From Dictyostelium discoideum (lineage: Eukaryota), in contig CM000153.2 in the NCBI GenBank assembly GCA_000004695.1, positions 5,024,001-5,088,000 of the forward strand: a stretch of 64,000 nucleotides of DNA, given 5' to 3'. The translations under genes and the position numbers were made by a program. The notes under the pieces are model-generated. The model did no database searches, had not been told where the DNA came from, and saw nothing but the letters and a program-made list of their open reading frames with translations. Of the stretch, positions 21,840 through 49,388 are shown in pieces. Position 1 is the first letter of the stretch. Each line of letters starts with the position of its first letter.

Positions 21840-22080
21840 TATAATAATAGTGAAAAACAAATTATAAATGAAATAGAAATTGTTATGTGAAAAGAAAAAA
21901 AGAACAGATTATTTTAAATTAAAGAATTTAGAAGAACTCAAACTGTTACATAACAACCCAGGGATATTGGAACAACCACAAAAGTAAAGAATCAATTGTG
22001 CAATTAAAATGAATGGATGAGGAATTGATTGAATGCTTGTGTAATTGAAAAGAAGGTTTAACTTAAAGATATGAATTCAA
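21840..22080 (+). pseudogene. Decayed fragment paralogous to the N-terminal region of the 23649..26777 gene (about 24040..24300)
   Basis: By eye the nucleotide sequence is collinear with 24047..24300: gaaaaacaaattataa...ttatgtgaaaagaaaaaa...aaagaatttagaagaactcaaa...gtgcaattaaaatgaatg...aattgattgaat...gaaaagaaggttt. Indels and stops break the frame. Confidence 0.4.
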
Positions 22081-23160
22081 TTCAGATGTTTTTACAGGGG
22101 CCCAAAAATAATGGTGCATTAATGTTCCACACCCTAATTTCCAGAATCGAACCAGCAATCTAAAATCAACATCCAAATTAATATTATATGAATGCTGTAA
22201 AGCGTGAATCAAAACTAACTTTTCAGTTTTTATAATTTTCGAGTTTTCGTTATTTTCGGCCGAAGAGTTTCGAACGAAAACTCTAAAATATATAAAAACT
22301 AAATAAATTAATTATTATTTTAATTATTATTGTTTAATTGTTAATCATTATTATTCTTATTATTATTACTATTATTAATATTATGATTATTTTTTTTTTT
22401 TACCTAAAGGCGGTGTATTGTTATATTTTATTTCATTTTTAAGTTTTTAAATTTTTATATTGTTATATGTTGATATTTTTGGTTATATTATGATTTCTTC
22501 TACTTGGTTTTTTTTTTTTTTTTATATTATGATTATTTTTTTTTTTTTTTTTTTTTTTTTTTGATATAAATAAACTATTGTAGTATACAATTAGTATGTT
22601 ATTTTTATTTATTTATTTTAGGTTTTTTAGTTTTTGTGAATTTAAAATTGTATGTTATTTTAGATTTGATAATTAATAATTAATTGGTAGTGTAATTGTT
22701 GGAATTGGTTCATTTGTGTTTATGAATTAGTATGTTATTTTTATTTATTTATTTTAAGTTTTTTTTTTTTTTTTTTTTTTTTTTTTTTAATATTGGATTA
22801 ACAAGATTGATATATGTCCATCTGTGTTAATACGAGTTTTATTTAATATTTATTTAAAGGCTTATCATTTAAGCTGAAGGGTTATTTTAATCATATGAAT
22901 TGATCAAAAGATATAATATTTGGGAGAGATGATTCTGGAATACAATAGTAATTAGCTGTTGTTTTTCTTAGCTTGATCGTTGAAGTGAGAAGGATCTTAG
23001 GATCTTTGAAGTTATTATGGTCTTTTGCTGATAAGTTTTTCAGATCTTTTGCTTTTTTGATAATTTAGGTTTTTTAGTTTGTGAATTTAAAATGGTATGT
23101 TATTTTAGATATATTATGATTATTAAAACTTATTAATATTAAACAATGTAATTCATTACA
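22080..23160. mobile_element. Modular repeat tract on the 3' side of the tRNA-Val gene; probable degenerate tRNA-gene-targeted retroelement remnant (TRE-like). Identity unresolved
   Basis: Short modules recur: tagtatgttatttttatttatttatttta at about 22593 and 22727; ggttttttagttt(tt)gtgaatttaaaat(t/g)gtatgttattttagat at about 22621 and 23067; atattatgattatt four times. A B-box-like gctggttcgattctgg lies on the minus strand at about 22140, and a perfect 11-bp hairpin at about 22236..22290. The tract is GC-richer than its surroundings and lies immediately 3' of the tRNA. Confidence 0.3.
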
Positions 23161-23176
23161 CAAAAACATTAGTTTG

Positions 23177-23250
23177 TATTCAGAGCGGGAATCGAACCCA
23201 CGACCTAATCCGTGTTAAGGATTCGTGATAACCGACTACACCATCCGAAC
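23177..23250 (-). tRNA. tRNA-Val (anticodon AAC)
   Basis: The minus strand reads GTTCGGATGGTGTAGTCGGTTATCACGAATCCTTAACACGGATTAGGTCGTGGGTTCGATTCCCGCTCTGAATA. The acceptor stem pairs 7/7 (two G-U). The anticodon stem AATCC/GGATT closes the loop TTAACAC, giving anticodon AAC. The T-arm is GTGGG-TTCGATT-CCCGC and the discriminator base is A. Confidence 0.7.
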
Positions 23251-45942: not shown

Positions 45943-46334
45943 AAAAACAAAGAAACATATAAAAAAAAATTATAGTTTATATATAAATAAAAAAAAAAAA
46001 AAAAAAAAAACAAATACAAAAAAAAAACAAAATAAATAAAAATAAAAAAAAAATTTAAAAATAAAATAAATTTGTATAATTATTAAAAATAAATAATAAA
46101 TAAAAAATATAGTTTTTATAAATAAAAATAAAATAAAAAAACAATAAAAACTTAACCAAAAATCTTCACCACTAACACACTTGGTGAAATTAATTATCTT
46201 TTTTAAATATCTTTAAAAAAAATTTTTTAGATATTTTTTTTTTCTTTTTTTTTATTTTTTTTATTTTTTTATTTTTTTTATGTTTTTTTATAAAACTTTT
46301 TACTTTTAAAATATAAGCCTTGTAAAAAATAAAA

Positions 46335-49300
46335 ATGATAACAGAATTTGAAAAATTATTTTGGAAGGTTTTTAAAAATAAATATTTAATAGGTTTAATA
46401 TTTGAAAATGTAAAATGTATGAAATTATCATTTTTAGATGATAATAAATTTTATTTGGGTAATAGAATACTATTTAGATTTATAAGATCACTTTCATGGA
46501 TTACAAAAAAGAGACAATGGCCTCTATTAAAAGATAAATTATTAAGTAATGAATTCATTATAATAAAGAGATCAGGTATTTGTAGATTTTTAAAATATTG
46601 TAAAGATATTGATAATGATGAAGAAATCATTAAATTATTATATGAAAAAAAAAAAGATCAATTAAGTCAAGTTGATTTAATATCAGAATCAGTTAATAAT
46701 AATAATTTAAAAGCATTAAAAATTTTTACAAAACAATTTAATCAAAAAACTAATCATGAACCAATGGATTAAATCATTAGTGAATTATCAGTTAAATATA
46801 GTCAGGATGGTATTAAAATATTAGAATTCTTAATAAATGAAAGAAGTGAAGGTTGTTCAAAAGATCTTGATATATTTTCAATTGTAAATAATATTGAATT
46901 CCTTGAATATCTTTCAGATAGTATTAATAAAATTTTTAAATCCAACAATAATAATAATAATAATAATAATAATAATAATAATAATAATAATAATAATAAT
47001 AATATTAATAATAATAATAATAATAATAATAATAATAATAATAATAATAATAATAATAATAATAATAATAATAAAAATAATAATGATTTTAAATTAATGA
47101 GATTTAGTAAATTTATTATGATTTCAAATTTATGTTCAGAAGAATTACAGATGAAATTAATTGATAGAAAATTAATAGAATGTGAAGATTTAAAAATGAT
47201 AAATGACTTAATTTCATATAATTTCAAAATTTTAAATAATTTTAATGAATTTAAAATGTTACCGAATTCATTTTTTCATTATTTCGAAAGTTATTATTGT
47301 GGTGATGGTGGTAATAGTAGAAAACAGCTTTATAAACATTGTGCAATTTCTTATTGTTTATTTAAAAGATACCTAGAATTTGATAGTAGTGATGAAAGAA
47401 ATAAATTTTCATTTAATATAGTTGAATTCTTTGAAATTGCAATTAATTCATACTCTTTAAGTACTTTTTGGAATTTTGATTTTAGAAAATTAAATTTAAC
47501 TTTACAGGAGAAATATGAAATTTTAAATATTTTTATAAATTTTAAAGTCGATAATTCAAATCCATTGGAAAAGAAATTAAATAATTTGGAAAAAATAATA
47601 AATGTATTATATCCTTTTCAAGTTGTAGAATCACCACTACCTCAAATTGAAGAAGTTTATAAATTCTATAATTATTTAAAATCAAATTATAATGTTAATA
47701 ATTTAATTAAAATAATTCAAAGTTATTATCATTTGAATATAATTAAAGATGGAAATTTAAATTTATTAAATTCATTTTTAAATATATTTAAAGATGAAAT
47801 TAAAGATTCCAATTTCTTTTTTGAAAATGATAAACTTTTAATAAATCAAGATTATTTTATTAATTGTAAGGATAATAGTAATAAAGTTTTATTATTTTTA
47901 GATAGATTATTAGAAATTAAAGAATTTATAAATAGTGATATAATATATTCAAAATCATTCCTTCAATCATTAAAATTATCATTATTTCCAATTAGTAAAG
48001 AGGATTTTTTAAATTCATTATTAAAATTAAAACAACACTTTAAATTAACTCAATCATTACCACCATCACCATCTTTATCAATTAAATTTAATTATTTTAG
48101 TGATTTAATATTTAATTTATTAATTGATAATATCAATGATAAATTATTTATAAGAATGATAATAGAATCATTTATAAATTATTTACATAATGATATGGTT
48201 ATTCAAATTTTAGATAAATTAGTTGAAATTGATTTTGAATCATTTTCTTTAATATTAAATTCTTTGGGTAATGATTATAAGATTAATGAATCATTATTAA
48301 AATATAAAATTAAAGTAAATTCTTCAATTAAAATTTTAATTTCATCATTAAAATGGTATAAATATTTAGATTTTACATATTTAATTGAAGATTTAATTAT
48401 AAATTCAAATGACGGTGGTAGTGATGATGATGGTTCAAGTGAAATTAAATTAGATTTACAATTAATTGAAGAAATAATAAATTTACAAATTAATAATGAA
48501 ATGTATCAATCTAAACCAATATCGGATTTGGTAGTTGATCAGTCATTAAACTTTATGAATGATTTATTTGGTGGTGGTGATGATTTTAAATATATATCTT
48601 ATAATGCAACAAAGTTTGCATTAAATAAAAGAATGTTCAACTTATTAGAATTATTTTATAAACCAAAATATAAAAAATCATTCCATTGGGATGAGGAATT
48701 ATTTTCTTATCCTCCAATTTTACCAAACCCAACCTCATTTCAACAAGATAAACCACAACAACTACAACCATATCAACAAAATCAAAAGATTGAAAAAGAA
48801 GAGAAAGAAATAAAAAAACTAAATAATGCACAAAAAACAAAAGAAATTAATATTAAATCAAAATCAAAAACTAATACTGAATTAAATAATGAATTAAAAC
48901 AAATTCAAAGTTATTATTTTATTGATGATTCAATTATGTTATTGGAATTGGGTGAAGTAAGAGATGCTCTTTTCTATTTTAAGAAATATGGTAAAAATGA
49001 TTTGAAAAGTTTAAGTACAATCAACCTAAAAAAGATAATCAAAGCCTATGAAATGGAAATTGTGGCCCAATATATTTCTTTGTACCTCTCATATTTTGGA
49101 AGAACTGTTACAACTGACCTATTATACTATTCATTAAAAAAGGGCAGAATTGATGTTTACCAATTCCTTTACAATTATAATTCCAACTTTAAAATGATTG
49201 ATCAATATTTTTATACGAATCTAGCTAAAAGAGGTGACATACCAATGATTAAATTTCTATTATCTCAAGATACATTCACTAATTTATCAAATAATAGAAA

Positions 49301-49388
49301 AAATGAAATAATTAATCAACTTTTAACAATAGCCATTGAATTGGGTAATAATAGTCTTTTAAATTGGTTAAACACTCTACCCTCATGA
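46335..49388 (+). CDS. Paralog-family member B. A single reading frame runs 46335..49388 but carries one in-frame TAA at 46773..46775. It may be a pseudogene, two adjacent ORFs, or a base-call error
   Basis: ORFs 46335..46772 and 47097..49388 share one frame (both coordinates are 0 mod 3) and, as far as I can read the frame by eye, no second stop intervenes. The TAA falls in a region homologous to gene A: ...HEPMD*IISELSVKYSQDGIKILEFL aligns with ...KEPMDCAIKINDMELIEYL. The N-terminus (EFEKLFWKVFKNKYL...) and ANK-like C-terminus (LAKRGDIPMIKFLLSQ...IAIELGNNSLLNWL) are paralogous to 23649..26777. An (AAT)n polyN tract lies at about 46946..47078. Confidence 0.45.
46946..47078 (+). repeat. (AAT)n microsatellite in paralog B
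   Basis: About 44 AAT units with one ATT/AAT variant, in frame with the flanking ORFs. Confidence 0.9.

Follow-up and report, generated by a model that had tools for sequence, protein, structure and literature searches.

The window, a stretch of 64,000 nucleotides of AX4-type Dictyostelium discoideum DNA, was found to hold three loci of one protein family. They comprised an intact gene (gene 1), a gene interrupted by a stop codon (gene 2) and a partial copy. The features were as follows.

21770..22095, + strand: decayed, frame-broken partial copy of gene-1-type (blastn, local alignment)
23176..23250, − strand: tRNA-Val(AAC) (ARAGORN; Rfam tRNA, 57.9 bits)
23649..26777, + strand: gene 1, intact family member, one uninterrupted ORF of 1042 aa
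23649..23948, + strand: family-specific N-terminal block of gene 1, residues 1-100 (family alignments)
24093..24284, + strand: two divergent ankyrin-like repeats of gene 1, residues 149-212
26052..26177, + strand: (AAT)n polyN tract of gene 1, codons ~802-842, predicted disordered (pLDDT <35)
26433..26603, + strand: C-terminal ankyrin-like repeat pair of gene 1, residues ~929-985 (hhalign)
46335..49388, + strand: gene 2, single reading frame of 1018 codons, nonsense-interrupted
46773..46775, + strand: in-frame TAA of gene 2, directly after EPMD
46947..47078, + strand: (AAT)n polyN tract of gene 2, codons ~205-248

Gene 1 was arranged in the order N-terminal block, ankyrin-like repeats, helical-hairpin middle, polyN tract and C-terminal ankyrin-like repeats. 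Residues 1-100 held the LFWKVFKNKFL helix hairpin followed by YFLGNR...I.T.SF..K...W.LLKD, and residues 149-212 included the motifs 'NLEALKLFTEQF...EPMD...IEYLGNNRKEGF'. The repeat pair at residues ~929-985 was located within a C-terminal block conserved with gene 2. A product identical to gene 1 was called in assembly GCA_054883475.1, which showed 99.8-100% identity to window positions 20641..29813, excluding an N gap. The window ORF at 37049..38551 was exactly DDB_G0286911 of D. discoideum AX4.

Family membership and homology of the loci

Searches with gene 1 residues 1-801 against 1.84 billion representative proteins gave 15 matches in all. Every match to the N-terminal block was a dictyostelid 'hypothetical protein', originating from D. 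discoideum strains, D. purpureum, D. firmibasis, D. citrinum or Tieghemostelium. This agrees with the lineage-specific paralogous family proposed in the preliminary description. The relatives were unnamed proteins of 110-1300 aa with 25-40% identity. No counterpart of gene 1 at 50% identity or above was recovered, and a collection of 15 billion proteins contained no sequence identical to either gene product. Short members of 112-213 aa, for example AX4 DDB_G0277623, consisted of the N-terminal region alone and were conserved across species. Within the N-terminal block, E5, F8 and W9 were invariant, and L7, K10, V11, N14, N42 and R43 were conserved in at least 90%. The signature E-x-LFWKVF-x-NK-x-L...GNR-x-x-F-x-x-I-x-SL-x-W...W-x-LLKDKL was present in both genes, and a profile of 20 members detected gene 2 with E=6e-33 and gene 1 with E=9e-29. 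The window contained no further family copies according to this profile on six-frame ORFs and tblastn with eight diverse family queries.

Gene 1 and gene 2 aligned in BLASTP over residues 5-211 and 6-173 with 36% identity (E=7e-28) and over residues 851-1018 and 833-1016 with 28% identity (E=2e-8). Their middle parts were weakly collinear (E~0.01), and nucleotide similarity was confined to two short conserved blocks. The motifs LFWKVFKNK, FLGNR and K.LK.FT.QF...EPMD were found in both genes as originally described. A polyN tract was likewise present in each, but at non-homologous positions (codons ~802-842 and ~205-248), so the tracts are not evidence of common descent.

The core of the fragment (21836..22094) corresponded to nt 387..670 of gene 1, codons ~130-223; ahead of it, a fainter resemblance extended to ~21770, possibly gene 1 codon ~97. 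In blastn it matched gene 1 DNA with E=5e-47 and 74% identity counting gaps, or ~85% over ungapped columns; the alignment held 37 gap positions and showed frame-breaking indels and stops. The all-against-all comparison suggested earlier was thereby significant at both the protein and the DNA level. A three-way alignment showed gene-1-specific characters in the fragment, making it gene-1-type and not gene-2-type. The preliminary description had placed a frame-broken third copy of the N-terminal region at 21840..22080. Gene-1-homologous DNA does lie there, but it matches the ankyrin-like part and not the extreme N-terminal block; the LFWKVFKNK block was absent from 21770..22095.

A chance match of low-complexity, AT-biased sequence would draw on the very AT-rich genome, the polyN in both genes and the non-homologous placement of these tracts. 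This explanation is already refuted and its probability is practically nil. The BLASTP E-values of 7e-28 and 2e-8 were composition-adjusted, 20 proteins from at least six named Dictyostelium/Tieghemostelium species kept the N-terminal block without any change in its E, F and W, and the fragment reached a local alignment score of 351 against a shuffled mean of 141 (SD 14).

Profile comparisons assigned the family to proteins built from NRxEGCT...AMDxAAxxGHLxVVKxLH units. Gene 1 residues 149-212, with the family profile, matched two consecutive 28-residue NRxEGCT repeats in hhalign (probability 95.2%, E=2.6e-8), and phmmer matches to NRxEGCT-type proteins ranged from E=8e-6 to 7e-4. The C-terminal block matched the ankyrin-like repeat profile with a probability of 79% (E=1.6e-5). 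The C-terminal ankyrin-like repeats noted earlier are therefore retained at moderate confidence, although Pfam recognised no ankyrin there. No match reached the curated threshold of the Pfam clan Ank (PF00023, PF12796, PF13637 and others). Gene 1 reached 19.5 bits with Ank_4 (E=1.3e-3) where 22.7 were required, gene 2 had no Pfam ankyrin match, and 3 of the 25 family members matched Ank_4 or Ank_2 at E<=0.1. A long array of regular tandem repeats was not found; a single-repeat HMM gave isolated weak matches in genes 1 and 2. All three loci were shown to descend, with strong divergence, from the dictyostelid 'NRxEGCT' ankyrin-like repeat proteins.

The full-length AlphaFold2 model of gene 1 was all-helical, with moderate confidence (mean pLDDT 65.6, pTM 0.38) from an input alignment of 25 sequences. 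Stacked helix-loop-helix repeats of ~28-33 residues, forming an ankyrin-type solenoid, were predicted. The middle ~600 residues formed helical hairpins in the model without detectable sequence periodicity, and no other domain was found for this hairpin architecture. Structure prediction of the N-terminal region had been proposed as a check, and the modelled N-terminal 250 residues resembled ankyrin-repeat folds. Foldseek searches of the PDB with the full-length and N-terminal models returned generic helical-repeat matches, none of them significant. The first ~90 residues had no sequence relatives outside the family and no Pfam or PDB sequence match. The earlier statement that the N-terminal block holds no characterised domain stands for this part, but not for K.LK.FT...EPMD...NRKEG, which is a divergent ankyrin-like repeat pair. 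An in-register NRxEGCT repeat was also considered for GNR...SLSW...LLKDKL and was unsupported at the sequence level (hhalign of residues 1-92, probability 0.05%). What had been an 'unknown' N-terminal region in these hypothetical proteins can thereby be annotated as an ankyrin-like domain of divergent type, with a leader specific to the family.

State of gene 2 and turnover of the family

Two full genes had been counted in the preliminary description; gene 1 is intact, and gene 2 is disabled by its in-frame TAA. The gene 2 sequence including the TAA recurred in an independent assembly. In a wild strain the site read AAA (Lys), and the counterpart carried three frameshift deletions elsewhere, including losses of 4 bp and 11 bp in complex sequence; its polyN tract was shorter by 105 nt. 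Assembly errors could in principle account for the frameshifts, but the 4-bp and 11-bp deletions in complex sequence are atypical of homopolymer errors. The lesions show that gene 2 was put out of action separately in two lineages of D. discoideum, by nonsense in AX4 and by frameshifts in the wild strain. An intron that excises the TAA was rejected, as no GT..AG interval spares the conserved codons: every interval of in-frame length across the TAA removes the VDLI...NLKALKIFTKQF...EPMD codons and/or the downstream NERSEG ankyrin-like block. The locus is either a recent pseudogene or the source of a truncated product of 145 aa, followed by a long residual ORF. Automatic gene models invented introns at this locus, giving 986 aa in GCA_054883475.1 and the 922-aa KAM9977781.1 in the wild strain. 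The findings are chiefly of use for annotation: gene 2 is a pseudogene from which automatic pipelines make a 'protein'.

That gene 2 still functions in AX4, by readthrough of the TAA or as a 145-aa N-terminal protein plus a 763-aa protein from the ATG at 47097, is unlikely. No stop interrupts the 870 codons past the TAA, whereas at ~20% GC a random frame is expected to close within tens of codons, and the 145-aa product resembles the naturally short family members. A very recent nonsense mutation would equally leave the downstream frame open. The dN/dS of gene 2 was 0.39, with 0.05-0.30 in neighbouring genes; it lies under the neutral value, so that selection seems relaxed yet non-neutral, which suggests some constraint until recently. 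The wild-strain counterpart is broken at three other places, and the locus therefore appears dispensable.

Gene 1 was flanked by G8 and polyQ genes, and gene 2 by VIT/VWA/MIF4G and FNIP genes. The FNIP gene was located directly downstream of gene 2; another FNIP gene followed the paralogue P0013. The relatives in D. purpureum and D. firmibasis proved non-syntenic, so no orthologue can be assigned to gene 1 or gene 2. D. firmibasis held a tandem pair of family members. With 28-36% protein identity, gene 1 and gene 2 are old paralogues. The 25-40% identity among relatives, the non-synteny, the tandem pair, the decaying copy and the disabled gene 2 show a family that turns over by birth and death.

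The preliminary description had favoured segmental or transposon-associated duplication, which is now very unlikely for the three copies. All copies are on one strand within 28 kb, and the fragment was indeed beside a tRNA gene, as first noted: tRNA-Val(AAC) is located between fragment and gene 1, as context and not as part of the family. Retrotransposons of D. discoideum prefer tRNA genes as targets, according to PMC5006619. In the fragment-tRNA interval, a palindromic stretch of ~113 nt and direct repeats of 64 nt were present, possible remnants of mobile elements. However, 22095..23176 contained no transposon coding sequence or identified element. Rfam recognised nothing but the tRNA in the interval, a plasmid collection, an ill-suited library, gave no match, and the repeats did not recur significantly elsewhere in the window or in the fetched loci. 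The low identity of the old paralogues, with DNA similarity in two short blocks only, also speaks against such copying, and since gene 1 and gene 2 have unrelated neighbours, no duplicated segment exists. Local (tandem) duplication followed by decay fits better. The distance from the fragment to gene 1 downstream is 1.55 kb and both share one orientation, which a partial duplicate formed in tandem would be expected to show; the tandem pair in D. firmibasis points the same way.

The three loci represent ordinary gene duplication followed by decay, with one intact copy, one recently disabled copy and one decayed scrap. The preferred reading, with a probability of roughly 70%, is a fast-evolving family of ankyrin-like scaffolds, specific to the lineage, in which local duplication and pseudogenisation drive the turnover. 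It is one more of the many lineage-specific, quickly turning-over repeat-protein families of social amoebae, and would gain interest only if the leader is a docking module or if presence/absence polymorphism is tied to a phenotype.

Proposed role and comparison with known repeat proteins

The three loci are members of a cytosolic, all-helical repeat-protein family present only in Dictyostelia. The family-specific leader consists of the LFWKVFKNK helix hairpin and, after it, the GNR...SLSW...LLKDKL unit; it would run into an ankyrin-type stack and then into a long predicted solenoid of helical hairpins. No catalytic domain was detectable in the family proteins, and a role as protein-protein interaction scaffold or adaptor is therefore most likely, judged by fold class alone and by analogy with other ankyrin solenoids.

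The LFWKVFKNK hairpin could alternatively be a cryptic F-box-like leader that docks Skp1, with the members as SCF substrate receptors; this is quite unlikely. F-box receptor families typically evolve by birth and death, which counts for this proposal, as does the short conserved N-terminal helical leader ahead of a variable repeat scaffold. Many Skp1 interactors of Dictyostelium combine FNIP-LRR/ankyrin repeats with degenerate or cryptic F-box-like N-termini (PMC9485057). The neighbouring FNIP protein carries a similar 'LFRKVWKNIVIKNQIL' stretch ahead of its repeats, which the family N-terminal profile matched weakly (domain E=0.005, whole-sequence E=0.78); the similarity of the two leaders is not significant. 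None of the 25 members matched the Pfam F-box or F-box-like profiles (PF00646/PF12937) at E<=0.1, and the LP..E and V-C..W positions, canonical in the Dictyostelium F-box list, are missing from the LFWKVFKNK motif. By profile, the F-box motif of ~40 residues (LPxE...VCKxW) was not found, and the PDB profile search returned no F-box chain; the fold search gave no F-box signature either. A broader proposal is still less probable, namely that the leader might act as a docking module confined to dictyostelids, either a cryptic F-box or a different helix pair that binds an E3 or adaptor, common to the ankyrin-like family and FNIP-LRR proteins. If true, these fast-evolving genes, polymorphic between strains, would form a hidden class of substrate receptors for ubiquitin ligases, with gene 2, null in two strains by different lesions, as one example. 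Such receptors could act in conflict, in kin discrimination or in defence against bacteria or giant viruses.

The closest known proteins to the ankyrin-like scaffold family were the dictyostelid/oomycete NRxEGCT set named 'Ankyrin repeat protein' in UniProt: Heterostelium PPL_01972 and PPL_03242, Cavenderia DFA_04354 and Pythium oligandrum Poli38472_013681. Gene 1 aligned to their repeats at residues 149-212 and more weakly at the C-terminus, and they too open with a hydrophobic leader before the repeats ('LLLVLNNVVLQKNIFRQV' in PPL_01972). Their tandem repeats are numerous and near-perfect, and some exceed the Pfam ankyrin thresholds, whereas the gene 1/gene 2 family has only 2 + 2 degenerate repeats recognisable by sequence. 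Unlike in the NRxEGCT proteins, the N-terminal block is the LFWKVFKNK/GNR/SLSW type, specific to the Dictyostelium-Tieghemostelium branch. Canonical ankyrin domains were represented by IkappaB-alpha, DARPins, KANK3, gankyrin/Nas6 and chloroplast AKR2-type proteins. The match to these was based on predicted, not solved, structure, with 7-18% sequence identity and Foldseek E-values that were not significant, and the canonical 33-residue TPLH/GH consensus was absent from the family. Compared with Dictyostelium F-box proteins, the family gave no F-box signature by Pfam, profile or fold search, and Skp1 binding is putative. As in the FNIP-LRR/ankyrin F-box proteins of Dictyostelium, a short helical N-terminal leader precedes a variable repeat scaffold, and the F-box repeat receptors and the gene 1/gene 2 family are alike large, fast-evolving and lineage-specific.

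Two homologous genes and a decayed fragment

The window has 14-37% GC in 2-kb intervals and abundant polyN and polyQ coding tracts. Judging from one open reading frame (ORF) exactly matching an AX4 gene and from 99.8-100% identity of 20641..29813 to CM142510.1 of the independent assembly GCA_054883475.1 (1 mismatch and 5 small indels, a gap of N aside), the DNA is assignable to the AX4 laboratory lineage of D. discoideum.

Features of the window bearing on the family
23649..26777, + strand: gene 1, a single ORF of 1042 codons
46335..49388, + strand: gene 2, one frame kept over 1018 codons with an in-frame TAA inside
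23176..23250, - strand: tRNA-Val(AAC), between the decayed fragment and gene 1
37049..38551: DDB_G0286911 (Q54L47) of D. discoideum AX4, exact match of the ORF
50717..52486, + strand: FNIP-repeat gene directly downstream of gene 2 (Pfam E=6e-66)

In composition-adjusted BLASTP, gene 1 and gene 2 shared 36% identity over the N-terminal 170-210 residues (E=7e-28) and 28% over the last ~185 residues (E=2e-8), with weak collinearity in the middle (E~0.01). Their DNA was alignable only in two conserved blocks (75% over 146 nt and 68% over 211 nt). The polyN tracts, which the preliminary description had counted as a shared feature, are uninformative on common descent. They occupy different positions (codons ~802-842 in gene 1, ~205-248 in gene 2), and the tract of gene 2 differed by 105 nt between strains.

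The third, frame-broken copy was also homologous beyond chance. Window 21836..22094 aligned with nt 387..670 of gene 1 (E=5e-47), with 74% identity counting 37 gap positions or ~85% over ungapped columns; the local alignment score was 351, compared with 141 +/- 14 for shuffled sequence. Weaker similarity extended back to ~21770. In a three-way alignment, gene-1-specific characters were present and the gene-2-specific insertion was absent. Three related loci were thus correctly recognised, but the fragment had been misplaced on the N-terminal block: it corresponds to codons ~130-223 of gene 1, possibly from ~97, its frame is broken by indels and stops, and it falls within the ankyrin-like part, outside the LFWKVFKNK block. 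No further family copies were found in the window when eight diverse family members served as tblastn queries or when an N-terminal profile was run on all six-frame ORFs.

Gene 1 is flanked by a G8-domain gene and a polyQ gene, gene 2 by a VIT/VWA/MIF4G/MA3 gene and the FNIP gene. Since these flanks are unrelated, no segment was duplicated. The segmental or transposon-associated origin proposed earlier is not supported for this pair. Several observations concern the neighbourhood itself. The stretch 22095..23176, from the fragment to the 3' side of the tRNA-Val gene, was partly less AT-rich (~30% GC at 22101..22300). Within it lie a palindromic segment of ~113 nt at 22207..22319 and two direct copies of a 64-nt repeat, at 22602-22665 and 23047-23110. 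A tRNA-targeted or MITE-like element may have left this stretch behind. A huge polyQ/polyN gene (26966..33097, - strand) contains an assembly gap of 100 N at 29207..29309, in place of which a newer assembly shows 73 bp; the gene model there is 2324 aa long. A VIT and VWA ORF (39512..41059, + strand) and a MIF4G and MA3 ORF (41254..45942, + strand) are annotated in two assemblies as one gene encoding 2078-2106 aa, an unusual joining of a VWA5A-like to an eIF4G-like module. In Dictyostelium, association with SCF ligases has been reported for VIT/VWA proteins of the cytoplasm (PMC10539598). A polyubiquitin gene (59931..60620, - strand) encodes 229 aa, consisting of three identical 76-residue repeats and a terminal L.

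Disabling lesions in gene 2

Gene 2, initially regarded as a full gene, carries an in-frame TAA at 46773-46775, right after the conserved EPMD. The stop was also present in GCA_054883475.1, inside 2236 identical bases (locus L005, 19268..21503), where annotation gives a 986-aa product obtainable only by splicing around it. An intron removing the TAA was considered and rejected: all in-frame-length GT..AG intervals across the stop delete conserved codons, either VDLI...NLKALKIFTKQF...EPMD, the downstream NERSEG ankyrin-like block or both. The TAA was therefore read as a nonsense mutation.

In the wild strain GCA_054859385.1, the corresponding gene (KAM9977781.1; locus L002, 10001..12938) has AAA (Lys) at this codon. 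Compared with AX4 it has lost 4, 11 and 2 bp at codons 72, 649 and 879, each loss shifting the frame, and its 922-aa model bridges these sites with invented introns. The two lineages thus carry different disabling lesions. As 'introns' were placed over the nonsense codon or the frameshifts, both the 986-aa and the 922-aa models are likely artefacts. Between the two alleles, dN/dS (Nei-Gojobori) was 0.39, compared with 0.05 for the MIF4G/MA3 gene, 0.20 for DDB_G0286911 and 0.30 for the FNIP gene. These values agree with rapid evolution of gene 2 under some constraint that lasted until recently, followed by ongoing loss of the gene. Possibly, a residual 145-aa N-terminal product or a 763-aa downstream ORF is still in use.

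Compared with AX4 across window 36460..59437, the wild strain (loci L002 and L006) had a dS of ~0.06-0.11 for four genes, and the aligned DNA was 87-97% identical. Such divergence seems high between strains of one species, and this wild 'D. discoideum' may represent a cryptic lineage.

Distribution and turnover of the family

When gene 1 residues 1-801 were run exhaustively with HMMER against 1.84 billion representative proteins (E<=1e-3), only 15 matches were returned. All nine that spanned the N-terminal block or the whole length were dictyostelid 'hypothetical proteins', from D. purpureum, D. firmibasis, D. citrinum, Tieghemostelium lacteum and several new D. discoideum strain assemblies, and the family is lineage-specific, as first described. 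D. purpureum has DICPUDRAFT_81149 (26% identity full-length) and two shorter proteins. An N-terminal-region profile also retrieved short proteins of 112-426 aa with little beyond that region, including AX4 DDB_G0277623 and a ~210-aa form conserved in five species. Long members shared 25-40% pairwise identity, and the D. purpureum and D. firmibasis relatives lay in unrelated gene neighbourhoods. D. firmibasis CM069766.1 (locus L004) holds an intact same-strand tandem pair, 6239..9703 (1154 aa) and 10001..12844 (947 aa), 35% identical, which is direct evidence of local duplication in a sister species. Overall, the results point to old paralogues that duplicate locally in tandem and often decay. 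Lineage-specific expansions and pseudogenes of Dictyostelium are discussed in PMC8535579. In this genus, families of repeat proteins commonly turn over by birth and death.

A divergent offshoot of dictyostelid ankyrin-like repeat proteins

Pfam gave nothing above threshold for the family. The sole recurring weak matches were ankyrin models (Ank_4 or Ank_2 in 3 of 25 members; for gene 1, Ank_4 at 19.5 bits with a cut-off of 22.7). The other six HMMER matches were ankyrin-type proteins of Heterostelium, Cavenderia, Synstelium and the oomycete Pythium, whose 28-residue NRxEGCT..AMDxAAxxGHLxVVKxLH repeats match gene 1 residues ~125-240. This likeness was confirmed by profile-profile comparison, in which the part of the family profile corresponding to gene 1 residues 149-212 matched two consecutive repeats (probability 95%, E=2.6e-8). 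The region comprises 'IEYLGNNRKEGF' and the K.LK.FT.QF...EPMD motifs, which were rightly noted as common to both genes and form part of two ankyrin-like repeats. The C-terminal block matched the same repeats (probability 79%, E=1.6e-5). The first 92 residues alone had no ankyrin-like similarity in profile-profile comparison and no PDB sequence match. AlphaFold2 with a 25-sequence alignment predicted an all-helical protein of short helix hairpins (mean pLDDT 65.6) with disordered SPSPSP and polyN segments; the N-terminal 250-residue model was better (pLDDT 74.5, pTM 0.63; residues 130-210 at 86-94). Foldseek found no significant match for the full-length or the 250-residue model. Altogether, the family branches from the ankyrin-like repeat proteins of dictyostelids and is both divergent and lineage-restricted.

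Within the leader, E-x-LFWKVF-x-NK-x-L, the E, F and W are invariant. The leader is the sole strongly constrained element. If the family has a docking or capping function in common, this is where it would best be placed. That it is a cryptic F-box is an attractive but unsupported and improbable idea. Ankyrin and FNIP-LRR proteins whose N-termini resemble a degenerate F-box are among the Skp1 interactors of Dictyostelium (PMC9485057), and the FNIP gene downstream of gene 2 carries a leader-like 'LFRKVWKNIVIKNQIL' stretch. However, the leader profile did not match the FNIP protein significantly (whole-sequence E=0.78), the canonical LP/VCxxW positions are missing, and no F-box protein appeared among the results of any search. 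The likeness of the FNIP N-terminus 'SELFRKVWKNIVIKNQIL' to the leader (domain E=0.005) may be fortuitous or reflect a leader module common to both. Member P0013 of the wild strain likewise has an FNIP gene (P0016) next downstream, and in a third strain their equivalents are fused in one 1299-aa model (P0017).

Public assemblies already list the genes as hypothetical proteins, and their fold class is known; the family is uncharacterised, and the value of the present results is modest, chiefly for annotation. No catalytic domain was recognisable in the family. With a cytosolic location assumed, its ankyrin-like proteins would act as protein-binding scaffolds or adaptors, like other ankyrin and helical solenoids.
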